A stretch of 64,000 nucleotides of DNA, taken from an uncultured Nitrososphaerota archaeon (GTDB lineage Archaea > Thermoproteota > Nitrososphaeria > Nitrososphaerales > Gagatemarchaeaceae). Each line of letters starts with the position of its first letter. Position 1 is the first letter of the stretch. This document shows, piece by piece, positions 2,646 through 22,599 of the stretch. The notes under the pieces were generated by a model, which worked only from the letters and a program-made list of their open reading frames with translations, was not told where the DNA came from and did not search any database. The position numbers were made by a program, and so were the translations under genes. The DNA lies in NCBI GenBank assembly GCA_963838925.1, contig CAWISW010000002.1:256001-320000 (forward strand), in the 5' to 3' direction.

Positions 2646-2666
2646 ACATATATGTGCATAAATGCA
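2646..2666 (+). promoter_or_regulatory. trp operon promoter region with palindromes
   Basis: ACATATATGT palindrome (2646-2655); TGCAT-AA-ATGCA (2655-2666) around TATA-like CATAAATG, about 25 nt before ATG 2689. Confidence 0.5.
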
Positions 2667-2688
2667 TATTAGCGAGCATACCGCTGCC

Positions 2689-2760
2689 ATGAACGCGAGC
2701 AACATGGGTGACCACTTTTGGCAGCGATCTCAAGCTGTCTCCGCTCTCGCTCAAAGCTGA
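2689..2760 (+). CDS. uORF overlapping the trpE 5' end (MNASNMGDHFWQRSQAVSALAQS), candidate Trp-sensing leader
   Basis: ATG at the predicted TSS; sole Trp codon in CAC TTT TGG; the +1 frame is TrpE. Confidence 0.45.
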   Translation: MNASNMGDHFWQRSQAVSALAQS

Positions 2761-4150
2761 ACGGCTCCTAACCAAGGACTCTCCCAGCACCCTCTTCGTC
2801 AAGGTCCAAGACGAGTTCGAGAGCGCGTTCCTCCTGGAGTCCGCGATAGGGGCTAGGAGGCTGGCGGAGTACTCGTTCATAGGATTCGAGCCTCAGACGG
2901 CCGTTACCGTAAAGGACGGCGTCCTGAGGACCAAGTCCATCGACGGCGCGAAGGACAGCATGAAGACAAAGGACCCGCTCAAGGACCTGAGGCAGCTCGT
3001 CGCCGCTCAGGGGTCTCCAGATCTCACCGCCCGCAGCCCCTTCCGGTTCGTAGGGGGCGCCGTCGGGTACATCTCATACGACTCGGTCCGCTACTGGGAG
3101 CGCATCCCGACAAAGGCGAAGGACGACCTTTCCCTCCCCGACATGGAGTTCGGGATCTACACCGACGGGATAGTCTTCGACCACATCAACAAGGGGGTCC
3201 ACTACTACTCGCTGGGCCGGGCCAACAGGCTGAAGGAGGTCGAGTCGCTCCTGAGGCGGAGCGCCGCAGATCAACACGGTGGACTCACCGCGCCAAACGA
3301 CGCGAGGCCCACGGTCGAGAAGGAGAAATTCAAGGCCATGGTCGAGACCGCCAAGAGGCAGATCACCGCCGGGGACATCTTCCAGGTCGTCCTATCGAAG
3401 CGCTACGACTTCGAGCTCCAGGGCGACCTTTCCATGTTCTACCAGGCGCTCAGCCAGATCAACCCCTCCCCCTACATGTACTTCCTGAAGTTCGGAGAGA
3501 CCAAGATAGTAGGCTCGAGCCCTGAGATGCTCGTCCGCGTCGAGGACCGCCGGGTCGAGACGTTCCCGATCGCCGGGACGCGCCCCCATCTCGCTGACGC
3601 GAAGGAGAACGCCAAGCTCACGAAGGAGATGCTCAAAGACCCGAAGGAGAGAGCCGAGCACACGATGCTGGTCGACCTCGCGAGGAACGACGTCGGAAGG
3701 GTTGCGAGGTACGGGAGCGTCAAGGTCCCGGAGATCTTCACGGTCCAGCAGTTCAGCCACGTGCAGCACATAGTCTCCCGCGTCGTCGGGACGCTAAGGG
3801 AGGAGTTCGACTCGTACGACGCGATGCGCGCGATGTTCCCCGCGGGCACCGTCTCGGGAGCCCCCAAGCCCCGGGCCATGGAGATAATCGAGGAACTAGA
3901 GCCAGTGAGGAGGGGGCCCTATGCCGGCGCGCTGGGCTACTTCTCCTTCAACGGGAACGCGGACTTTGCCATAACCATCAGGACGCTCGTGGCGAGGGGC
4001 ACCAAGTGCAGCATCCAGTCGGGCGCTGGCATCGTAGCCGACTCCGACCCGGAGAAGGAGTGGCACGAGACCGAATCCAAGGCGGCCGGCCTCATGAAAG
4101 CGGTCGAGAGCGCGACGGGCCGCAATCTCATCGGGGAGGGGAAGGATTGA
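2708..4150 (+). CDS. trpE: Anthranilate synthase component I
   Basis: LLES, NPSPYM, GSSPE, PIAGT, EHTMLVDLARND, FPAGTVSGAPK motifs. Confidence 0.96.
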   Translation: MTTFGSDLKLSPLSLKAERLLTKDSPSTLFVKVQDEFESAFLLESAIGARRLAEYSFIGFEPQTAVTVKDGVLRTKSIDGAKDSMKTKDPLKDLRQLVAAQGSPDLTARSPFRFVGGAVGYISYDSVRYWERIPTKAKDDLSLPDMEFGIYTDGIVFDHINKGVHYYSLGRANRLKEVESLLRRSAADQHGGLTAPNDARPTVEKEKFKAMVETAKRQITAGDIFQVVLSKRYDFELQGDLSMFYQALSQINPSPYMYFLKFGETKIVGSSPEMLVRVEDRRVETFPIAGTRPHLADAKENAKLTKEMLKDPKERAEHTMLVDLARNDVGRVARYGSVKVPEIFTVQQFSHVQHIVSRVVGTLREEFDSYDAMRAMFPAGTVSGAPKPRAMEIIEELEPVRRGPYAGALGYFSFNGNADFAITIRTLVARGTKCSIQSGAGIVADSDPEKEWHETESKAAGLMKAVESATGRNLIGEGKD

Positions 4151-12739: not shown

Positions 12740-14062
12740 CTACTCGCTCTTTACCTTCGCCCCGAGCCTCTTGATGTCCTCGAGGAAGGTGGGGTATGAG
12801 ACGTCGAGGCTCTCCGCCCCCACGATGGGGGTCCCTCCTGGGATGAGCATCGAGGCCAGGGAGAAGGCCATGAACATCCTGTGGTCGTCGTGCGCGTCCA
12901 AGGGAGCCGCCTCCAGCTTGGCCTTCTGCGGGAGGATCTTCAAGCCGTCTTGCCTCTCCTTCACGTTCACGCCGAGCTTCGAGAGCTCTTTCGCCACTAT
13001 CGCTATCCTGTCAGTCTCCTTGAACCGAGCGTGGGCTGTCCCCACGATCTCGACGGGCGTGTCGCACCTGAGGGCCAGCGCCGCGACCACCGGGAGGAGG
13101 TCGGGGGTGTCGCCGAGGTCGAACCTCCCTCCGCGGAGCCTTTCTCCGTCCGAGGAGACGACGAGCGCGCCCTTCTCCTCTGCCACCTCCGCGCCCATGA
13201 GCTTGACTATCCGCGTTATGCGCGCGTCCCCCTGGGGCAGGCTCGCGTCGAGGTTCTCGATCCTCACCCTCCCCCCTATCATCGCGACGGCCGCCACAAT
13301 GAACGACGCCGAGCTGAAGTCCGCGGGCACGGAGAAGTCCACGGCGCGGTACTCCTGCCCCGATGGGACCTCGAACTCCGAGTATCCCTTCTTCCTCACC
13401 TTCACGCCGAACAGCTCCGCGAGCTTGAGGGTCATGTCGATGTACGGCCTCGAGACCGCGTCCGCGACCTTCAGGTTAGTGTCCATCTCGGCCAACGGGC
13501 TCGAGACGAGCAGCGAGGAGACGAACTGGGAGGAGACGTCCCCCCTGATCGACGCTCGCCCGCCCCTCATCCCGCCCGCCCTCACGACCACGGGCGCGCA
13601 CCCGTTCCCTGTCGTGCTCCATGCCTGCACGCCCAGCTGGCCGAGGGCGTCGAGGAGCGGCTGCATAGGTCTCCGCCTGATGCTGGAGTCGCCTGTGAGC
13701 ACCACGAAGCCGTCCGGGGCGAGAGAGAAGGCCGATGTCATGAACCTCAGCGTCGTCCCAGAGTTTTCGACGTTCACGACGTCGCCTGGGACCTTGGGGC
13801 TCGTCCCCTTGATGGCTAGGACCCGCTCTCGCCTCTCCATGGCGGCCCCCATCGCGGCGCACGCGTCTACCGTGGCGTTGGTGTCGCGGGAGAGCAATGG
13901 GTTGCGGATTGTCGAGCCCCTTCCTCCCTTGTCCACCGCCAGGCTGGCCATGAGCACCGCCCTGTGGGTGTAGCTCTTGCTCGGGGGGACAGAGACGCTG
14001 CCGGTCAGCGGCCCTGCCGACAGGACTCGGGTCGCCCCTTGGACGCTCGCGCTCCTAGCCAA
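12740..14062 (-). CDS. aroA: EPSP synthase
   Basis: SKSYTHRA, ENSGTTLR, SSQFVS, KETDRI, DHRMFM. Confidence 0.96.
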   Translation of the reverse strand: MARSASVQGATRVLSAGPLTGSVSVPPSKSYTHRAVLMASLAVDKGGRGSTIRNPLLSRDTNATVDACAAMGAAMERRERVLAIKGTSPKVPGDVVNVENSGTTLRFMTSAFSLAPDGFVVLTGDSSIRRRPMQPLLDALGQLGVQAWSTTGNGCAPVVVRAGGMRGGRASIRGDVSSQFVSSLLVSSPLAEMDTNLKVADAVSRPYIDMTLKLAELFGVKVRKKGYSEFEVPSGQEYRAVDFSVPADFSSASFIVAAVAMIGGRVRIENLDASLPQGDARITRIVKLMGAEVAEEKGALVVSSDGERLRGGRFDLGDTPDLLPVVAALALRCDTPVEIVGTAHARFKETDRIAIVAKELSKLGVNVKERQDGLKILPQKAKLEAAPLDAHDDHRMFMAFSLASMLIPGGTPIVGAESLDVSYPTFLEDIKRLGAKVKSE

Positions 14063-14947
14063 CTGCGAGGAGCCTCCCGTGCTCGTTGTTCGTCTCGGTC
14101 TCGATCACAGCGCCGACCTCGGCCGCCCAGTCCTTCGCCAGGGCGTCAAAGTCGGCTTGCTTCGAGGGGTCGAAGACCGCGGCGACCGCAGGCCCGGTCC
14201 CCGAGAGCCCAGCCCCCAAAGCGCCTAGTTCCACGGCACGGAGCGCCGGGTACGGGTCGTATTTGAGGATGGAAGAGTAGGCCATCCCGTTCAAGACCAT
14301 CGCCCTCCAGTAGTCTCCCTTGAGGCTCATCTCGAAGAACAGGCTGGTGAGGCCGCCGAACCTCCTGATGAACTCGGGGTCGACGCTCTCCCTCCTGCTC
14401 CTCACCTTGGGCACCACGACCAGCACCTTGAGCTTCTTGTCGAACAGCCTCGAGCTCACGACCTTCCGTCCGAGGTTGTCCGTCATGTTCAGCCCTCCTA
14501 GTACGCAAGCTGCAGCGTCGTCCAGCGCGCCGGTGATGCTGGCGCCGCTGGCCATCGACGCCTCGACGCTGCAGTCCATGACCTTCTTTGGGTCGAAGGC
14601 CTTCTGACCGAGGGCGGCGAACACGCCCATGGCGATGGCCGTCGACGAAGCCGAGGAGGTCTTGAGCCCGACCCCGATCGGGACGCTCGACGACGTGCTT
14701 ACCGCTCCGCAGTAGGCGCCGGGTCCTTCCCCGCGATCTTCATTGCGCTCCGAACGGTCTCGACCGCGAGCCGAGACTCCGACCTCCTTCCGTTGACCTT
14801 GACCTCCCACGTCCCGGGCGAGTCTTCCACCTCCACCTCCGCCTCCGTCGTGAGCCTGACGCTGGCGGTGGCCCCCTTTCCGCAGGCTATCGCGTTGACT
14901 ATGCTGATCGCCCCGAAGGTCTGGGCCCTCGCCCTGGCGTAGGTCAT
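14055..14947 (-). pseudogene. aroK: Archaeal GHMP-type shikimate kinase interrupted by a 1-nt frameshift near 14720-14732 (possibly a sequencing error)
   Basis: N-terminal GAISIVNAIACGKG in one frame (stop at 14699); PIGVGLKTSSA, ITGALDDA and LSGTGP in the next frame. Span is 893 nt, one short of 298 codons. Confidence 0.85.
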
Positions 14948-15813
14948 CTCTTCCCCCGGCCCCCCTTCGGCCTTTTCAAGGCTCCCCCGGAGGAACCCGC
15001 GAGCGCCTTCCTCATCGCCTTCTCCGGGGCTTCCTTCCCGGTCCAAAGCCTGAATGCGGCCATCCCCTGGTGCAGGAGCATCTCCTCGCCATGTATGACC
15101 TTGGACCCGTTCCTCTTCGCCTCTGCCAGGAGCTTGGTCTCCTTCGGTCGGTAGACGGCGTCGAACACGACCTTGGTCCCGGGGAGCACTCGCTTCAGCT
15201 CCTTGGGGAGCGCCTCGCCGCCCGCCCCCATGGGCGATGCGTTGAAGACCAGGTCGTGGTTGAGGTGGCGCAGGTCGTCCATCGAGGCCAGGGTGAGGTT
15301 CATCCGGGGGAACGCCTTCTCCATGTCGCTAACAAACCGGAGCGCCCGCTCCTTGTCCCTGACCGCCACCGCGACGTCGATGCAGCCCATCCTGTTCATT
15401 GCCTCGCAGAATGCGCGGGCTGCCCCGCCGGCTCCCACCAGCATCGAGTTCCTGATGTCGAGGGACGCCGCGACCGCCTTCAACGGCCCCTCGATCCCGT
15501 CCGGGTCGGTGTTGTGGCCGAGGTAGCGCCCGTCCGCCTCCATCGTCACGGTGTTGACCGCCTGTATCCTGGTCGCGACCGCGTCCAGGCCGCCCAGCCA
15601 GGGGATCACGGCCGCCTTGAAGGGGATCGTGACGTTCATCCCCTTGATCCTTGACGCCATCAGGCGCCCCAGCTCGCGGACGAACGAGCTCTCCGAAACG
15701 CTCACGCTGGTGTACTCGGCGTCGATGCGAAGGAACCGGAAGGCGGCGTTCATCATGGCCGGCGACGGAGAGCGTGAGACGTCCCTCCCGATCACGCAGT
15801 ACCTGTCCGTCAT
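14944..15813 (-). CDS. aroE: Shikimate dehydrogenase
   Basis: SPSP, NVTIPFK, AVNT, NTD, GAGGAARA, DAVYRP. Confidence 0.95.
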   Translation of the reverse strand: MTDRYCVIGRDVSRSPSPAMMNAAFRFLRIDAEYTSVSVSESSFVRELGRLMASRIKGMNVTIPFKAAVIPWLGGLDAVATRIQAVNTVTMEADGRYLGHNTDPDGIEGPLKAVAASLDIRNSMLVGAGGAARAFCEAMNRMGCIDVAVAVRDKERALRFVSDMEKAFPRMNLTLASMDDLRHLNHDLVFNASPMGAGGEALPKELKRVLPGTKVVFDAVYRPKETKLLAEAKRNGSKVIHGEEMLLHQGMAAFRLWTGKEAPEKAMRKALAGSSGGALKRPKGGRGKR

Positions 15814-15817
15814 CTTT

Positions 15818-16507
15818 TCAGGCTACCATTCTCCGGAGCTGCTTCATCGTGGAGACGGAGAGCTGCCCGGGCGCGACTGCCTCGTTCGGCATGGACGCGT
15901 AGACCAGGGGCGTGCCCGTCCGCATCGCGACGACGCGCGAGACCGTCCCCAGCTCCCCCATGCAGAAGGAGATCACCCTCCCGGGTCTCTCCTCGCTGAG
16001 GGCTAGGGTCGTGAGGTTGTCCTCGGCGCTCCTGGCGGTGGTGACGACCTTGGCCAGCGAGCCAAAGCCGAGCTCCTCGCGGCAGATAGACCGCAGCTCC
16101 TTCAGCGCGGGAGTGTCCTTGAAGTCGTGCCAGGAGACTATCCTCTTCACCGCCTTCGGCAGCAACTTCACCCAGTCCTTGTTCTCCCTCGCTGTGTCGA
16201 GCTCTATGTCGAGAAACGCCGGCTTCATGCCAGCCAGTCTAGAGATGAGGTCGAGGCGGTGGGACTCGCTTCCCATGAAGCCGCCTCCCTCCCTGCTCGA
16301 CCTGACGGTGATGATGGCCCGCCTCGAGAAGACCGAGAGTTCTGACTCGAGCACGCTCATGGCCTCGCCCCCCGTCAGCCTGTCTATGCGGAACTCGACG
16401 AGGTCGGAGCCGAGCGAGAACGCGGCCTTCGCCTTCTTCGCCATCTCCCCGGGGGAGTCCGCCACGACCGACGTGCAGAGCTTGGGCGCGCCCTTCCTCT
16501 TCGCCAA
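15818..16507 (-). CDS. aroD: Type I 3-dehydroquinate dehydratase
   Basis: VEFRID, TVR...EGG, SWHDF, MGELG.VSR, APGQ. Confidence 0.93.
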   Translation of the reverse strand: MAKRKGAPKLCTSVVADSPGEMAKKAKAAFSLGSDLVEFRIDRLTGGEAMSVLESELSVFSRRAIITVRSSREGGGFMGSESHRLDLISRLAGMKPAFLDIELDTARENKDWVKLLPKAVKRIVSWHDFKDTPALKELRSICREELGFGSLAKVVTTARSAEDNLTTLALSEERPGRVISFCMGELGTVSRVVAMRTGTPLVYASMPNEAVAPGQLSVSTMKQLRRMVA

Positions 16508-16544
16508 CGGCGCTCACCGCGCCGCCCGCGCTTGCCCTGCCTGG

Positions 16545-17576
16545 CTAGCGCTCGACAATGAACTCGTCGACCTCACCGCCGAAGTGCCTTCCCTTGGCCT
16601 GTCCGGCCACATGGACGAGTATCTCGTCTCCCTCCTTAGCCTCGGTTATCGCGAGCGGGGCCCCGTCTGGGCGGACCAGCCTGATGGTCTCCGCGTTCTG
16701 GAGCATCGCCGTCCCCTCCTGGCCGCCCACCTCCGCCTCTATCATCACCAAGGGCCTTCTCTCCATCTTGATGCGCCCCACGATGGCGTCCCGCCTGGCG
16801 CCCGACTTGTCGACCAGCTGGACCTTGTCGCCGCTCCTGAGCTCCGAGAGGTATCGCGTCTTGCCGTCGACCCCTAGGATGTAGCTGTGGAGCGCCCCCG
16901 CGTTGACCCGAAATGGGCGGGTCGGGATGTACTCCGTCGGCACGGTCTCGCTGTGCACGAGGAAGAAGAAGCTCGCCATGCTCCCTATCAGCATGCCCTC
17001 CCCGAGCCCCAGCTGGGACGCTGTGTCTATGCAGACCCTCTCCCCGTCGCCGACGTCCACTATCCGCTTGATCCTTGCCTTCTCGAGCGGCAGGCCGCGC
17101 CCCTTGCTTAGGGCGGCCGATGTCATCTTGGAGATCAGCTCCTTGGAGGCCTTCAGCGAGGAGTACGGGACCACTACGCCGTCCACCCCCTTCTCCAGTA
17201 TCGAGAACGCGAGCTTGATGTCGCTCTCCGACTTCATGAACGCGTAGATCCTGCGGCGCTTCCGCCTGAACTCGCCTATCAGGTTCTCGAGCGGGATGAT
17301 CTTCCAGTTGGTGCAGTCGACCACCACGAACTTGTAATCCTTCTGCAGGGATGAGTCGACGGCGCGGTCGAGGTCCTTCGACCCCTTGACCTCCACCCAA
17401 ACAAAGTCCCCGTCCTTCTCCCTGTACTCGTGGAGCCCCCCCGCCCCTTCGAGCGGCTTCGACTGACCGCGTGTCAGGACGGCCCCTATCCCCGCAGCCT
17501 TCGCCTCCTTCAGCGCCCTTGCGATGTCTTGGATGTCGGTGACGTCGAGGACTATCTCCTTCTCAGGCGTTGGCAG
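16545..17576 (-). CDS. 3-dehydroquinate synthase II (AroB'), probable CTG start
   Basis: WKIIPLENLI, GERVCIDT, RPFRVNAG, LQNAETI, GRHFG; frame stays open 60 codons upstream of GTG 17396, to CTG 17576 preceded by GGAGGT. Confidence 0.9.
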   Translation of the reverse strand: MPTPEKEIVLDVTDIQDIARALKEAKAAGIGAVLTRGQSKPLEGAGGLHEYREKDGDFVWVEVKGSKDLDRAVDSSLQKDYKFVVVDCTNWKIIPLENLIGEFRRKRRRIYAFMKSESDIKLAFSILEKGVDGVVVPYSSLKASKELISKMTSAALSKGRGLPLEKARIKRIVDVGDGERVCIDTASQLGLGEGMLIGSMASFFFLVHSETVPTEYIPTRPFRVNAGALHSYILGVDGKTRYLSELRSGDKVQLVDKSGARRDAIVGRIKMERRPLVMIEAEVGGQEGTAMLQNAETIRLVRPDGAPLAITEAKEGDEILVHVAGQAKGRHFGGEVDEFIVER

Positions 17577-18357
17577 CGCTCATGACCTCCATCGCCTCCT
17601 CGACGCTGCTCCTTTCTATCACTATCCTTCTCAACGCCCTCACGATCAGGGTCGGGTCGCGGTGCTGGAAGACGTTCCTTCCGAAGGTCACTCCCATCGC
17701 CCCGGCCTCCATGACGTCGTCAGCGAGCTTGAGTATCTCTGCGTCCGATTCCACCTTCGCCCCGCCGGCGAGCACCACCGGGACGGGGCACTTTCTGACC
17801 ACTTCCCTGAAGCTCTCCTTGTCTCCCGTGTAGACGGTCTTGACGATGTCGGCCCCGCTCTCCGCCCCCACCCTCGCCACGTGCGCCACGACCTCGGGGT
17901 CGGAGGGGTCCTTGACGTTCTCGCCGCGCGGGTACATCATCGCGATGAAAGGGATCTGGTAGTTGTCGCAGTGGTCTGCCACCATCCCCAGCTGCTCGAG
18001 CATCTCGGGCTCCTCCTTCGAGCCCATGTTGACGTGGATGGAGATCGCGTCGGCCCCCAGCCTCACTCCCTCCAGGACCGAGGCGCACAGCATCTTCCGG
18101 TTGGGGGCCAGGCTCAGGTGCGTGCTCGCGGAGGCGTGCATTATCATCCCGGTCGAGACCGGCTTCTTCAGGGCCTTGATTATCCCCTTGTGGACCAAGA
18201 ATGCGGTCGCCCCGCCCTTCGCCACCTTCACTATCATCTCCTCGGGGTTCTCGAGACCTTCGATGGGCCCTATCGTGAAGGAGTGGTCCATGGGGATGCA
18301 GAGCATCCTCCCGTTCTTCGTTATCCTGTTCAACCTGACTTGCTTTCCAAAGACCAA
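17563..18357 (-). CDS. 2-amino-3,7-dideoxy-D-threo-hept-6-ulosonate synthase (AroA', class I aldolase)
   Basis: PMDH, HKG, MYPRG, GADIVKTVYTG, AGG, GRNVFQ; adjacent to AroB'. Confidence 0.92.
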   Translation of the reverse strand: MVFGKQVRLNRITKNGRMLCIPMDHSFTIGPIEGLENPEEMIVKVAKGGATAFLVHKGIIKALKKPVSTGMIMHASASTHLSLAPNRKMLCASVLEGVRLGADAISIHVNMGSKEEPEMLEQLGMVADHCDNYQIPFIAMMYPRGENVKDPSDPEVVAHVARVGAESGADIVKTVYTGDKESFREVVRKCPVPVVLAGGAKVESDAEILKLADDVMEAGAMGVTFGRNVFQHRDPTLIVRALRRIVIERSSVEEAMEVMSAANA

Positions 18358-18367
18358 CTTGTTCCAC

Positions 18368-19441
18368 CTAGTTCCCCAGGTATCCTTCCCGCTCCATGAG
18401 CTCCGCTGTGAGTATCGCCGTGCCCGCCGCCCCCCTGATCGTGTTGTGAGAGAGCAAGGTGAGCTGGAGGGACTTGCGGTCGATCCCGCTCCTGACCCTC
18501 CCGACCACCACGCTCATCCCGGGGACGCTCCCAGCCATCCTGTCGAGCCGGGGCTGCGGCCTGTCGTTCTCCTTCCTGACGATGATCGGCCGGTCGGGGG
18601 CCGTGGGGAGCTTGAGCCTCTGGGGCTCTCCCCTGAACCTGCTGAGGGACCTTACGGCTGCCGCCGGGGTGATCTCGTGGGCGAACTCGGCGTAGAGCGT
18701 CTCCAGGTGCCCGTCGATTACCGCGACCCTGTTGCACGAGATCCCCATGCTGAGGGGGCTGGGCTTTATCGCGCCGTTCTTGTACGTCCCAAGGATCTTC
18801 TTCGCCTCCGCCGCGACCTTCTCCTCCTCGTTCTTGATGTAGGGGATCACGTTCTCCTGGATCGAGAGCGAGGGCACGCCTGGGAACCCGGCTCCAGATA
18901 GGGCCTGCATGGTCGTCACTATGGCCTTCCTTGCCCCGAACTCGTCGACGAGCGGCTTCAGGACCATCGACAGACCCGTACCCGTGCAGTTGGGGGTCGT
19001 GGCGATAGCACCCTTCCACCCTCGCTTCTTCTTCTGGGACTCTAGGAGTTGGAGATGGTCCGCGTTGATCTCCGGGATCATGAGCGGGACGTCGGCGTCC
19101 ATGCGGTGGGCGCTCGCTTCGCTGACAACCGTGAACCCTGCCTCTGCGAACTTGGCCTCGACCTCCGCCGCGACCTCAGAGGGGAGGGCAGAGAAGACGA
19201 TGTCGCACCCCTTCGCGGACTCTGGCTTAGCCTGGCGCACCACCTTCTCGGCCATCGCCGGGTCGATAGCGTCCGGGAAGAGCCACCTGACCGCCTGGCC
19301 GTACTTCTTGCCGGCGGACTCACCGCCCATCAGCACCTCGAGGTGGAGGTACGGGTGCTTGGGGAGCATGTTGATGTACCGCTGCCCTACCGCTCCCGTC
19401 GCGCCGAGGAGCGCGGCCTTCACCTCTCTTCGTCTGGTCAT
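18368..19441 (-). CDS. asd: Aspartate-semialdehyde dehydrogenase (archaeal/fungal type)
   Basis: LGATGAVGQR, PNCT, QALSGAG, EEEK, GH.E, SHNTIRGAAG; ATG 19441 overlaps the lysC stop. Confidence 0.95.
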   Translation of the reverse strand: MTRRREVKAALLGATGAVGQRYINMLPKHPYLHLEVLMGGESAGKKYGQAVRWLFPDAIDPAMAEKVVRQAKPESAKGCDIVFSALPSEVAAEVEAKFAEAGFTVVSEASAHRMDADVPLMIPEINADHLQLLESQKKKRGWKGAIATTPNCTGTGLSMVLKPLVDEFGARKAIVTTMQALSGAGFPGVPSLSIQENVIPYIKNEEEKVAAEAKKILGTYKNGAIKPSPLSMGISCNRVAVIDGHLETLYAEFAHEITPAAAVRSLSRFRGEPQRLKLPTAPDRPIIVRKENDRPQPRLDRMAGSVPGMSVVVGRVRSGIDRKSLQLTLLSHNTIRGAAGTAILTAELMEREGYLGN

Positions 19442-20685
19442 CTCGATCTCGACTCTCCCTTGGCAGCCGGCGCCCCCATCATCGCCTCCCTCACGAGGCC
19501 GCACGCTCGCTCCGCCTGCTCGGCCGAGACGAATACCCTCACGGAGGAAAGGATGGTGACTATCCCGTACACGTTTATCGAAGCGTGCGCCAGCGGCCGG
19601 GTTATCCTCTGGACGACGCCCTTCTCCGTCTCGAGCGCCGCCCCCTTCACGGTGATCATCGACAGGCGGGGGAACTCGGAGACCGCCTTCCCTATCTTGT
19701 CCTCCACCAGCACCTTGTGGACCGCCTCGAGGACGTTCTCGCCTCCTCCCACGTAGAATATCGCCGCGTTGGCCTCGAGCGAAAGGGCGAGCATCTCCCC
19801 GCGCGCCTGCCTGACCGCGCTGACCGCGCGGATAATGGACTCTGCCTTCTCAGGGTTCAGGCCCACGAACGTTATCATCGAGACGCCCTGGCCTAGGAGC
19901 TCCACTTGGACCGGGGATAGCTCTCCCTTGATGACCGTGCCCGAATCGAGCCTGTCGAGGTTCGTCACCCTGATCCTGAGGCCTGATGACTGGTACCTTA
20001 GCGCCTTCACGTGGAGGAACTTGGCGCCGCCTGCGGCGAGCATCTCAGCCTCCTCACCGTTCAGGCTCTCGATGAACTGCGGGTTGGTGACCTTGTCGGG
20101 GTCGCTGGAGTACACCCCCTCGACGTCCTTGACCAGTATGACCTCGTTAGCGCCCAGGCAGTTGCCGAGCAGCACCGCCGTCGTGTCGCTACCGCCTCTT
20201 CCCAGGGTCGTGGTCTTCCCGCGAATCGTCTTCCCCAGGAACCCGCATACGACCGGGACCTTGCCCGCGGCAAGCAGGGGGAGTATGAGCTGCTGGGTCT
20301 TTGCCCGGCTCTCCTCAACCAGAGGGTTCGCGTCGAGGTGCCTGTCGTCCGTGATGACGGGCCAGTACGGCGTGTCGGGGTCGACTATCACGGACTGCAG
20401 GCCGTGTGACGCGAGCGCCGCGGCTACCAGTCGAGCGCTCGTCTTCTCTCCGGAGGAGAGGAGCTCGTCGAGGAGGTGGGGCTCGATCTCCGGGTTCTCC
20501 TTCTTGGAGAGCGCCATGATCTGGTCGGTTACCCCCTTCATAGCGGAGACTACGACAACGACGCCAAGCCCCTTCCCCTTCGTCTCCTTGATCAGGGACG
20601 CCACTTGGTCGACGGCCTTCTCGTCCTCTAGGACGGACCCGCCGAACTTCACGACGACTGTCTCTAACATCTTAGTTGTGCTCAT
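19438..20685 (-). CDS. lysC: Aspartate kinase with ACT domains
   Basis: VKFGGS, VVSAM, SSGE, TLGRGGSDTTA, KDVEGV..DP. Confidence 0.94.
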   Translation of the reverse strand: MSTTKMLETVVVKFGGSVLEDEKAVDQVASLIKETKGKGLGVVVVVSAMKGVTDQIMALSKKENPEIEPHLLDELLSSGEKTSARLVAAALASHGLQSVIVDPDTPYWPVITDDRHLDANPLVEESRAKTQQLILPLLAAGKVPVVCGFLGKTIRGKTTTLGRGGSDTTAVLLGNCLGANEVILVKDVEGVYSSDPDKVTNPQFIESLNGEEAEMLAAGGAKFLHVKALRYQSSGLRIRVTNLDRLDSGTVIKGELSPVQVELLGQGVSMITFVGLNPEKAESIIRAVSAVRQARGEMLALSLEANAAIFYVGGGENVLEAVHKVLVEDKIGKAVSEFPRLSMITVKGAALETEKGVVQRITRPLAHASINVYGIVTILSSVRVFVSAEQAERACGLVREAMMGAPAAKGESRSR

Positions 20686-20733
20686 GGTGCAAGACGCTCC
20701 AGCTGATTTTCGCGGAAAGGACTAGAGCGCGAA

Positions 20734-20808
20734 CTAGTAGCGAAAACCGAAGATGGGCTTCTGATAGCTGAGATGCGGATAAACTGAACCGCCTCGTTGA
20801 AGCCTCAT
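20734..20808 (-). CDS. Phe/Tyr-rich leader peptide (MRLQRGGSVYPHLSYQKPIFGFRY)
   Basis: 24-codon ORF between the TATA-like box (20839-20847) and lysC; 5 Phe/Tyr codons, ending FGFRY-stop. Confidence 0.55.
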   Translation of the reverse strand: MRLQRGGSVYPHLSYQKPIFGFRY

Positions 20809-20838
20809 CTTTTCTCGGACAAAACCGCCCCCGAATCG

Positions 20839-20847
20839 ATATTTATG
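20839..20847 (-). promoter_or_regulatory. TATA-like box of the aromatic operon
   Basis: CATAAATAT on the minus strand, about 30 nt upstream of the leader ATG. Confidence 0.45.
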
Positions 20848-21036
20848 CGTTGCTGAAGAAAACCTGCGATGGCACGAAAGCACCTATCGGAAACGTAGGC
20901 GAGCCCGGTCCCGCAACGAATCCGTCGCGTAAGTCATTGCAACCGATACAAATTCGATAATTCTGTTGCCAATATATTAAATAGTGGAGTGGCGAGGAGC
21001 AAAAAAAGCCTCGCGGTCAAGGTGGTGTTTGGTAGA

Positions 21037-22599
21037 ATGGTCGTAGCCGTTGTGTTCTCCCCAGTGGCCGACGTAATCCTCGGAGTCTCCGTCCTGCTCA
21101 GCTTCTCCTTCTTCATCTACGGGATCAACACGCTGCACCTGACGAGGAGGGCGCGGCGCTACATCCAGCCCTCGCAGAACGGGATGACCTCGAGGCCTGC
21201 CGTCGCGGTCCACCTCCCGGTCTACAACGAGTTCTACGTCGCGGACAGGCTCCTCAGCGCCTGCGCGAAGATGGCCGACCACTACGGGCGGGGCTTGGTG
21301 AGGGTCTGCGTCATCGACGACTCGGACGACGAGACCCGCGAGAAGCTCGACGCGCTGTCGAAGAGCTACATGGAGCAGGGCTACAACGTCGAGATACTCC
21401 GCCGTGGGACGAGGGCGGGTTTCAAGGCGGGCGCCCTCCAGGCGGCGCTCGAGAAGACGACCGAGCCCTTCGTGGCGGTCTTCGACGCTGACTTCGCCCC
21501 GAGCGAGGACTTCCTCGATCGGACGGTGCCATTCATGCTCCAGGACGACAAGGTCGGGTTCGTCCAGTGCAGGTGGGCGCACTTCGACAGGGGATACAAC
21601 ATGATCACCGAGACCCTCGCCATAGGCATCGACGCGCACTTCCTCCTCGAGCAGCCGGGCCGCTGGAGCAGCGGGTACATGATGAACTTCAACGGCAGCG
21701 CCGGGCTGCTCAGGACCTCGGCCATACTGGGCGCCGGAGGCTGGAACTCGGACACCCTCGCCGAGGACCTCGACCTGAGCTACCGCATGCAGCTCTCAGG
21801 ATACAAGCCGGTCTACCTCAAGGACGTGAAGGTCCCGGCGGAGCTACCGCCTACTATAACGAGCCTCAAGCGGCAGCAGGGCCGCTGGGCGAGGGGCTCC
21901 ATACAGACCGCCCGCAAGGTCTGGCCGAGCGTCTACGCCTCAAAGAAGCTCTCCGTCCGGCAAAAGTTCGAGGCGTTCGTGCACCTCACCTACTACATGG
22001 TGCACCCCCTGATGGTCGCCTCGTTCGTGCTCGCCCTCCTGGCGACATTCCTGAACGTGAACGTCATCAACTATGCAGTCCACGTCACCGTCCCCACCCC
22101 CGGGGCCTTGATCGGCTCTCCCGCGCAGATGACCGTGGCCATAGTGCCGTGGGCGATATTCGCTCTGATGATCGTGCTATCGACCCTCGCCGTGCTCTAC
22201 TACTGCATCGAGGCCGTGAGGGTGCAGCACCTCGGTCTCCTCAGCAACGTCAAGCAGATCCTTCTGCTCGTCATCCTCGGATACGGGATCAGCGTCAGCA
22301 ACTCCGTGAGCGCGCTCTCGGGCCTCCTTTCGAGCAAGACCGGGACGTTCCTCAGGACGCCGAAGTACGCGATCACCAGCAAGACCGGCACGTGGAAGGA
22401 GAAGAAGTACCAGCTCACCCTGAACAGAGAGACCGCCTTCGAGATGCTGGCGACGGTCGTCGGCATCATAGCGATAATCTATGCCGCGGCCCTCGGCAAC
22501 CTGGGCATACTCCCGATACTCGCGGTGTACGTCACCGGGTACCTCCTGGTGCTCTTCCTTACGCTCTCCCAGTCGGTCTCAAAGCAGCTGCTGAACTAA
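21037..22599 (+). CDS. Processive GT2 glycosyltransferase (cellulose synthase-like)
   Basis: LPVYNE, DDSDD, KAGAL, FDADF, LAEDLD, QQGRWARG (D,D,D,QxxRW), C-terminal TM helices; start uncertain (20989 or 21037). Confidence 0.9.
   Translation: MVVAVVFSPVADVILGVSVLLSFSFFIYGINTLHLTRRARRYIQPSQNGMTSRPAVAVHLPVYNEFYVADRLLSACAKMADHYGRGLVRVCVIDDSDDETREKLDALSKSYMEQGYNVEILRRGTRAGFKAGALQAALEKTTEPFVAVFDADFAPSEDFLDRTVPFMLQDDKVGFVQCRWAHFDRGYNMITETLAIGIDAHFLLEQPGRWSSGYMMNFNGSAGLLRTSAILGAGGWNSDTLAEDLDLSYRMQLSGYKPVYLKDVKVPAELPPTITSLKRQQGRWARGSIQTARKVWPSVYASKKLSVRQKFEAFVHLTYYMVHPLMVASFVLALLATFLNVNVINYAVHVTVPTPGALIGSPAQMTVAIVPWAIFALMIVLSTLAVLYYCIEAVRVQHLGLLSNVKQILLLVILGYGISVSNSVSALSGLLSSKTGTFLRTPKYAITSKTGTWKEKKYQLTLNRETAFEMLATVVGIIAIIYAAALGNLGILPILAVYVTGYLLVLFLTLSQSVSKQLLN

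Follow-up and report, generated by a model that had tools for sequence, protein, structure and literature searches.

How does an archaeon learn that its aromatic amino acids are running short, and could the translating ribosome itself be the sensor? To our knowledge, amino-acid sensing at the level of translation is largely unknown in archaea, and we know of leader-peptide control as textbook matter for bacteria only. The question is raised by a window of 64,000 nt (G000:C2:256001-320000) from the 1.84-Mb, 87%-complete genome of an uncultured Nitrososphaerota archaeon, in which a short upstream open reading frame (uORF) lies between a TATA-like box and an operon headed by an aspartate kinase gene. 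The operon is the archaeal aspartate-semialdehyde route to chorismate and hence feeds a pathway that ends in Phe, Tyr and Trp. A first-pass annotation of this DNA had proposed that ribosomes stalling on Phe and Tyr codons of the uORF open RNA structures hiding the Shine-Dalgarno (SD) sequence of the kinase. When orthologous leaders were compared, the idea that the ribosome reads out aromatic supply was supported in outline. The codons that form the order-wide conserved core of the leader are more in keeping with a +1 frameshift cassette than with stalling alone, and on balance we lean towards a +1 frameshift that would sense tRNA charging, be coupled to reinitiation at the kinase and be backed by an aromatic tail and an SD-sequestering hairpin.

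Results

Conservation of the leader ORF and of a cassette within it

The kinase was searched in 41 relatives, with a match in 39, and in 301 genomes of the order, 59 of which had a match at E <= 1e-60. This gave 64 kinase loci, of which 63 were analysed after removal of one that begins inside the gene (L010). Across the order, related uORFs are found upstream of kinase orthologues, and the uORF before the aromatic operon is a conserved element. In the window it runs on the minus strand from ATG to TAG (20734..20808) and encodes MRLQRGGSVYPHLSYQKPIFGFRY, as first annotated; five of its 24 codons are Phe or Tyr (Y10, Y15, F20, F22 and Y24), three of them among the last five. All 20 same-genus loci with upstream sequence have the ORF in frame, with an ATG or TTG start and a stop: start, frame and stop are kept in 19/19 aligned leaders, and the 20th locus (L019) also carries the ORF. 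Indels between subgroups are multiples of three. About 30 nt 5' of the uORF ATG lies the TATA-like box of an archaeal promoter, ACGCATAAATATCGA (20836..20850, minus strand), within which GCATAAATA is invariant in the 19 aligned leaders; the box as it had been pointed out, GCATAAATAT, is at 20848-20839. The uORF is probably a translated regulatory leader.

Within the uORF, the codons for R-G-G-S-V-Y, which had escaped the first-pass annotation, are invariant in the same-genus alignment, third positions included. The corresponding string, GG[CGT]G[AG][TC]-NNN-NTT-T[AT][TC], was found in 51 of the 63 leaders, which represent 19 genera of 11 families with a GC content of about 25% to 60%. It sits 2-7 codons after an ATG, GTG or TTG, save in loci of family f11 without a canonical frame-0 start, and across genera it reads [RK]-G-[DG]-x-[LV]-Y directly after a start codon that in many cases has an SD of its own.

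The 5' half of the cassette is an SD-like stretch, in the window GAGGCGGT (20788..20795, minus strand; core GGCGGT, 20793-20788), which is complementary to the 3' end of 16S rRNA. In the host genome this end reads ...GGAUCACCUCCU; its pairing with the stretch includes G-U pairs and a single C/A mismatch. Of the 51 cassettes, 48 retain GGCG[AG]T, and the 3-nt spacing to the slippery codon is constant. In the window, the spacer TCA (20787-20785), the slippery GTT_T (20784-20781) and the Tyr codon TAT (20781-20779) make up the proposed +1 shift site (20779..20787, minus strand). Among the 51 cassettes the slippery codon is CTT (28), GTT (20) or TTT (3), and the codon that follows it is TAT (40), TAC (9) or TTY (2). 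Counted over nine genes of the host genome, the codons GGT, TCA, GTT and TAT of the window cassette account for 5%, 4%, 3% and 2% of their synonymous families. Third-position invariance and such rare codons together indicate that selection acts on the nucleotides.

When a filter for the whole architecture was run on the host genome, it returned the aro and trp leaders plus one probable chance match; the motif by itself is found a single time. A third cassette-like string, GGCGGCAATCTTTTCCTG, was noticed in G000:C2 at ~228.4 kb (~228,400; L098 positions 300-330), 140 nt before a 450-aa ORF. It lies upstream of the TATA-like box of that downstream gene and is probably due to chance.

Downstream of the cassette, an aromatic tail (Y15, F20, F22 and Y24; 20737..20766, minus strand) closes the zero frame just 5' of the stop and the hairpins. 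Counted once per genus, the share of Phe, Tyr and Trp after the cassette is 17% in the zero frame versus 7% and 10% in the other two frames, and in the window 4 of the 14 zero-frame codons after it are aromatic. An enrichment of orthologous leaders in Phe and Tyr codons had been suggested as a check of the stalling idea; aromatic codons are indeed retained, by exchange among Phe, Tyr and Trp (FGFRY, FGFYYF, FGFSF, CGFWF and YGYSW, each before a stop). Tails of the same genus comprise KPIFGFRY, FGFSF, FGFYYF, CGFWF and FGFKF, those of the same family include FGFYYF and FGFFGYSW, and leaders that begin with TTG, among them MNAITRAERPAYWTVFGFFGYSW and (M)VSIANRLYLSYSYWVSYYY, are seen in the family's other genera.

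Two loci of family f14, genus g59 (L061 and L065), have no aromatic leader. A short ORF with an Ile run, MKMLIIIPNDSVSFKEI, between -50 and +4 of the kinase start, overlaps that start and may be a differently tuned leader.

Reading frames from the shift site to the kinase

A ribosome that shifted by +1 in the window would enter a frame of 32 sense codons devoid of ATG, GTG and TTG, the TGA of which overlaps the kinase ATG (ATGA, 20685-20682; whole frame 20682..20780, minus strand). The zero-frame stop UAG (20736-20734) lies 48 nt before the kinase. Among the 51 loci with a cassette, the +1 frame is open to 16 nt or less from the kinase start in 50, the +2 frame in 19 and frame 0 in one; the exception for the +1 frame, L018, has an upstream in-frame TTG that gives a TTGA overlap. 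Per genus, the +1 frame is open to the kinase in 19/19 versus 6.2 expected from shuffles (sum of log10 P = -11.3). By our start assignments, the +1 stop is the exact UGA of an NUGA overlap in 26/51 loci, window included, and the other +1 stops fall from 16 nt before to 32 nt after the kinase start; the zero frame always ends earlier, 13 to 107 nt 5' of that start. In L024 the +1 frame coincides with that of the kinase and stays open for 411 codons. No canonical start (ATG, GTG or TTG) occurs in the +1 ORF of 18 loci, the window among them, and in 23 it occurs only downstream of the shift site.

A sister element at trpE

The first-pass annotation had drawn in a uORF before trpE, and a matching leader is found there, with the same cassette in the same register and a Trp codon replacing the Tyr codon. 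In the window this region (2656-2760, plus strand) holds the trpE leader ORF (2689..2760), which contains the cassette ATG GGT GAC CAC TTT TGG (2704-2721; ATG GGT GAY NNN NTT TGG in more general form), TrpE (2708..4150) lies in its +1 frame, and a GCATAAAT box precedes it, as at the aro leader. Comparison of 30 trpE loci from relatives (L068-L097) and 30 from family f12 (L179-L208) showed that 54 of the 60 carry the pattern NTG GGT GRN NNN NTT TGG and have TrpE in its +1 frame: 24/30 in the relatives and 30/30 in f12, a family of closed, amoA-bearing genomes that likely includes cultured strains. Among the remaining loci, L075 meets a contig end, L082 is out of phase and L095 has a variant without NTG-GGT; the cassette is absent from the trpE loci L074, L086 and L097. 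Minimal zero-frame leaders occur as well, for example MGGHLW followed by a stop.

Since a GTG within the SD-like stretch lies in the TrpE frame, trpE might simply start at this codon, with the motif encoding the N-terminus of TrpE. Such a start would leave unexplained why TTT is never TTC, even in a genus in which TTC makes up 93% of Phe codons, and why the string is shared with the aro leader, which does not encode the N-terminus of a protein. It is also at odds with L089 and L091, from two families, in which a TAG, in frame with TrpE, separates the GTG from the shift site; after this TAG no canonical start follows for 80 (L089) and 34 (L091) codons, and the zero-frame starts at these loci have SDs.

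GTACA/TGTAC boxes adjoin the TATA box upstream of 13/28 trpE leaders, with two or more in nine. Examples are L076, L080 and L087; such boxes are also seen upstream of aro promoters of genus g20 (L034, L035 and L039), and the window has GTGGACATATATGTGCAT at 2645-2668. They are reminiscent of the operator boxes of TrpY, and a repressor may act alongside the leader.

RNA structures around the kinase SD

The strings from which the first-pass annotation had built its helices are all in place: GGTTTTCGC (20748-20740), GCGAAAATC (20713-20705), CTCAGCT (20772-20766), AGCTGGAG (20704-20697), TTCGCG (20733-20728), CGCGAA (20714-20709), ACTAG (20738-20734) and CTAGT (20737-20733). The structures made of them fared unevenly. 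The helix GGUUUUCGC (20748-20740) / GCGAAAAUC (20713-20705), which encloses the zero-frame stop (20705..20748, minus strand), is paired in 90/90 cells of an alignment of 10 close sequences, with one compensatory and three one-sided changes, but does not go beyond shuffles. The two other helices, CUCAGCU with the SD and UUCGCG/CGCGAA, are paired in 85-86% of cells, not above shuffles either. CUCAGCU, proposed as the partner of the SD, can thus pair (85.7% of cells) but is the weaker option, the minimum free energy (MFE) structure pairing the SD with GCGCUCUAG instead.

This SD-sequestering helix, GCGCUCUAG (20730-20722) / CUGGAGCGU (20702-20694), spans 20694..20730 on the minus strand and covers the SD GGAG (20700-20697). 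It forms in the MFE structure, is paired in 93.3% of cells, and its GCGCUCUAG arm begins 3 nt after the zero-frame stop. In the window the unpaired probability of the SD is 0.00 versus 0.23 in shuffles, with 0/100 shuffles as low. The occlusion of the SD first suggested from the window is also predicted for family f1, where the GGAG has an unpaired probability of about 0 compared with 0.15-0.3 in shuffles; consistent sequestration of the SD was not found outside this family. The fold of the whole leader is not beyond chance (MFE -45.9 kcal/mol, z = -0.70, 52/200 shuffles folding at least as well). Rfam covariance models run over 20500-21200 with E up to 10 gave no relevant match, and sR2 appeared elsewhere at E 1.9.

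A terminator scan found three terminator-like sites in 20400-21200 and none between 20734 and 20686; archaeal oligo-T termination lies outside such a scan, and the longest T run between the uORF stop and the kinase is 3-4. As no intrinsic-terminator-like site separates the two, control would act on translation. The combined scan for sigma-70 promoters and terminators is not informative for an archaeon.

Discussion

A model for the leader

We propose that the leader reports the supply of aromatic aminoacyl-tRNA to the aspartate kinase-asd-aro operon by means of two modules. The first (codons 5-10, order-wide) would be a +1 frameshift cassette resembling that of prfB. Its SD-like stretch, GAGGCGGU, would pair with the 3' end of 16S rRNA in the elongating ribosome, which three nucleotides further on meets the slippery GUU_U and then the very rare Tyr codon UAU. 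With ample Tyr-tRNA, frame 0 would be kept, translation would stop at the UAG, and the kinase GGAG would stay locked in its hairpin. With scarce Tyr-tRNA, the A site would stand empty and the peptidyl-tRNA would slip from GUU to UUU. The shifted ribosome would read the 32 +1 codons through the hairpin, end on the UGA of the AUGA at the kinase start and reinitiate there, which would switch the operon on. The second module (codons 15-24, family-specific) is the cluster of Phe and Tyr codons by the stop, where a stalled ribosome would mask the 5' arms of the hairpins, much as first suggested for this leader. What has been observed is the conservation, the layout of the reading frames, the match to 16S rRNA and the rarity of the codons; the slip, its link to charged Tyr-tRNA, the reinitiation and the role of the hairpin are inferred from these.

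Several observations weigh against this model. The open +1 frame of the window is weak evidence, because shuffles also leave it open 39% of the time, and NUGA overlaps are in themselves frequent; 33/51 loci have a canonical start within the +1 ORF, which in 10 of them stands at or before the shift site. The weight of the open frame comes from AT-rich relatives such as L025 (25% GC), where it is open for 32 codons and ends on the start, and L026 (44 codons, P = 0.03). In family f11, four of the five loci of genus g13 have TGA or TAA as the frame-0 spacer codon, and all three loci of genus g45 together with L029 have no canonical frame-0 start; the motif is nonetheless conserved in all of these. 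Genus g20 (8 loci) has no cassette, and in two of its loci, L032 and L034, the frame of the NUGA overlap is open for just 13-14 codons. The aro cassettes retain the C that mismatches an A of 16S rRNA, whereas the trp cassettes retain a T. By our own alignment, about 7 nt lie between the G paired with the 16S CC and the slippery codon, which looks more like an initiation spacing; in prfB the SD lies 3 nt from the slippery site. ARAGORN listed 22 tRNAs in the host genome and no tRNA-Tyr, tRNA-Trp or tRNA-Phe among them; these probably contain introns or were not assembled. Covariation of the stems was not significant among the 10 close sequences, which vary little: 50/500 shuffles reached the level observed, and no helix beat the control. 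Finally, when ribosome footprints were masked at eight positions, the GGAG was paired in every state, so that thermodynamics neither supports nor excludes unmasking.

The f11 loci deserve a word of their own. In L028, L057, L058 and L059 (genus g13), TGA and TAA are exchanged at the spacer codon with the stop preserved, and three of the five g13 loci have a +1 frame with an ATG of its own and an end rich in Phe and Tyr (MDSSPTSETKCFFFNFYY). Recoding of TGA in this family was ruled out, the flagged TGAs lying past the kinase stop.

Alternative explanations

The leader could work by classical translational attenuation only, stalling on Phe and Tyr codons near the zero-frame end melting the hairpins that hide the SD, with no frameshift role for the +1 frame or the RGGSVY codons. 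In its favour, the zero-frame tail is richer in aromatic codons than the other frames and stays aromatic while swapping Phe, Tyr and Trp, and pairing reaches 93% of cells in the SD helix and 100% in the helix around the stop. In genera g20 and g22 this is the only kind of leader, for example MNAITRAERPAYWTVFGFFGYSW with an SD hairpin, and Bathyarchaeota have leaders with up to 10/15 aromatic residues followed by a hairpin. It does not explain why third positions of the cassette are invariant in codons that are among the rarest, why the +1 frame is open as far as the kinase start in 19/19 genera, why minimal leaders with a single aromatic residue exist ((M)RGDHLYIL and (M)RRGDLLYRR), or why trpE has a cassette with TrpE in the +1 frame. 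The SD hairpin is not consistent beyond family f1, and the ribosome masks never freed the GGAG. As a complete explanation we consider stalling rather unlikely.

The ~7-nt spacing, which would suit initiation, suggests another possibility: that the SD-like stretch is a true ribosome-binding site from which a separate +1 uORF starts at the codon after UUU (AUN or AUG), translationally coupled to the kinase, the zero-frame ORF being a competitor or incidental. An ATG stands exactly at the first +1 codon in L006, L009 and L016, the f14 loci have TTG one codon later, and the f11 loci with a stopped or startless zero frame would be accommodated. The first +1 codon is ATC in the window, ACN in the 9/51 cassettes with TAC and GGN in every trp cassette; 18/51 +1 ORFs have no canonical start at all. 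Neither the switch from Tyr to Trp codon between the operons nor the conserved frame-0 start with its own SD or promoter just upstream is accounted for, and we think internal initiation quite improbable. Conservation at the nucleotide rather than the amino-acid level, the persistence of the motif in f11 leaders with a broken zero frame, and flanks that can form a hairpin around it would also agree with an RNA or DNA site for a trans-acting regulator or ligand, to which the reading frames are incidental. We hold such a site to be very improbable: the Rfam search gave no relevant match, the fold is no better than that of shuffles, and the motif is non-palindromic and lies downstream of the promoter. 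Its phase is fixed relative to the start codons, the zero-frame stop and the +1 frame ending at the kinase start, and its variable 4 nt and the change from UAY to UGG match the product of each operon. The misfits of f11 and g20, the C/A mismatch and the ~7-nt register keep both internal initiation and a trans-factor site alive as rivals of the frameshift model.

Comparison with known systems

The frameshift model has its closest relative in prfB, whose consensus is CTT_TGA_C plus an SD (PMC3711429) and whose short zero frame is both sensor and effector (PMC5009743). Shared with it are a short zero-frame ORF, an upstream SD-type stimulator, a slippery YTT_T, a slow A-site codon and a functional product in +1; here the slippery sequence is GTT_T in the window and NTT_T at trp, the SD-like stretch stands at a fixed 3 nt, and the +1 frame is open. 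The A-site codon differs, being a sense codon (UAY or UGG) for the pathway's own product where prfB has the stop UGA, and for this reason we regard the cassette as a functional analogue of that of prfB and not as a member of its class. Moreover, aminoacyl-tRNA would be sensed here and not a release factor, the host is archaeal, the SD register seems longer, and the +1 frame of the aro leader encodes nothing conserved and would only deliver ribosomes to the next start codon.

At the 'hungry codon' sites of yeast Ty1, ABP140 and EST3 (CUU_AGG_C) and at the Ty3 site (GCG_AGU_U), frameshifting has been described in which peptidyl-tRNA-Leu on CUU re-pairs in +1 during slow A-site decoding (PMC5009743). 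A slow sense codon in the A site and a P-site tRNA that re-pairs in +1 are common to Ty1, ABP140, EST3 and the proposed cassette, and GCG_UAC and GCC_UAC, which genus g20 has at the position equivalent to the shift site, resemble the Ty3 site. In yeast, however, the slowness comes from a constitutively rare tRNA and sets a ratio, whereas in the proposed cassette it would follow the supply of the amino acid and act back on its synthesis. In the ermC leader, ribosomes frameshifted under ketolides run from the uORF into the spacer, melt the structure and allow downstream initiation (PMC5009743), which shows that a downstream start can be opened by ribosomes that have shifted frame; there a drug on the ribosome is the trigger, without a dedicated cassette, whereas the trigger proposed here is encoded in the mRNA and specific for the product.

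With bacterial pheL and trpL the leader shares a short ORF enriched in product codons before the operon and alternative hairpins after it, but no terminator-like site stands between uORF stop and kinase. Frameshifting in E. coli pheL is treated as incidental in the available part of a 2016 review (PMC5009743). Mycobacterial polycysteine leaders, leaderless or near-leaderless short ORFs rich in the codons of one amino acid, likewise attenuate the downstream operon; they are bacterial and stalling-based, and no frameshift is proposed in the accessible portion of that report (10.1101/834739). For archaea, the available part of a 2021 review lists only one -1 case (fucA1) and, on +1 frameshifting, goes no further than that it 'appears to be present' in a single halovirus (PMC8211752). 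Searches of the full-text literature, a coverage outside which most subscription journals fall, brought up no account of archaeal aromatic or tryptophan genes being controlled by frameshifting or by a leader peptide. The present proposal would combine prfB- and Ty1-like regulatory +1 frameshifting with control by a leader ORF.

The locus and aromatic leaders in other archaea

The aspartate kinase (19438..20685, minus strand; NF005159, E 1.7e-94) is the first gene of its operon. It is followed on the same strand, over 12740..19504, by genes identified by NCBIfam matches: asd, 2-amino-3,7-dideoxy-D-threo-hept-6-ulosonate (ADH) synthase (aroA'), 3-dehydroquinate (DHQ) synthase II (aroB'), aroD, aroE, an archaeal shikimate kinase and aroA. 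ADH synthase adjoins the kinase orthologue in 62/63 loci. A divergent glycosyltransferase gene lies upstream of the operon. Just 5' of the aro promoter, in or adjoining the start of that gene, a terminator-like hairpin is followed by CTTTTTTT (window 21009-21022, minus strand). In the RNA run X1, labelled as a peat metagenome, a single 156-nt contig matched window positions 19848-20003 without differences; being inside the kinase gene and not covering the leader, it indicates presence only and says nothing on the leader or the transcription start site.

Archaeal amoA was found in three closed genomes of sister families (f9, f12 and f15) and was not found in two closed genomes of the window's own family. 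On this distribution we take the order to be the one that contains the ammonia-oxidising archaea, and the window's family probably does not oxidise ammonia. A kinase match at E <= 1e-60 was found in 0 of the 73 + 73 genomes of two large amoA families.

A search for related loci yielded only kinases of at most 41% identity, from Jordarchaeia, Bathyarchaeota and bacteria, and a protein atlas pointed to a mixture of archaeal phyla. Extreme Phe/Tyr leader ORFs also occur in Bathyarchaeota. In four records (L100-L103) they lie ~60-170 nt upstream of the kinase, for example MRFFSFGYYFYYYFR (10/15 aromatic) and ...SFDYYFYYYHFP, and a GCCCAG...CUGGGC hairpin with a U-rich loop comes directly after each leader ORF. 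ADH synthase follows the kinase in L100-L102; the contig of the fourth record ends too soon to show it. A Jordarchaeia record (L099) has the leader ORF MWMDYFFMHN. No frameshift cassette was found in the Phe/Tyr leaders of L099-L103. The Bathyarchaeota leaders thus appear to lend independent support to aromatic leader peptides in archaea.

Implications

Taken together, these comparisons raise the possibility, which we rate as evenly balanced, that an order including ammonia oxidisers uses mRNA-encoded +1 cassettes, made of an SD-like stretch, a 3-nt spacer, NUU_U and a codon for the product, as direct sensors of tRNA charging. In the UGG version, synthesis of TrpE, as a trans-frame protein, would be confined to times of Trp-tRNA shortage; in the UAY version, the shift would bring ribosomes to the start codon of the aromatic operon. 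If this is true, it would give archaea their first regulatory +1 frameshift in a cellular gene, and would be the first natural hungry-codon frameshifting that serves as a feedback sensor of an amino-acid pathway. The annotation of trpE in the order would change, from a GTG-start gene or a pseudogene to a recoded gene, and a portable cassette would make a 'translation error' the feedback sensor of the aromatic and tryptophan pathways.

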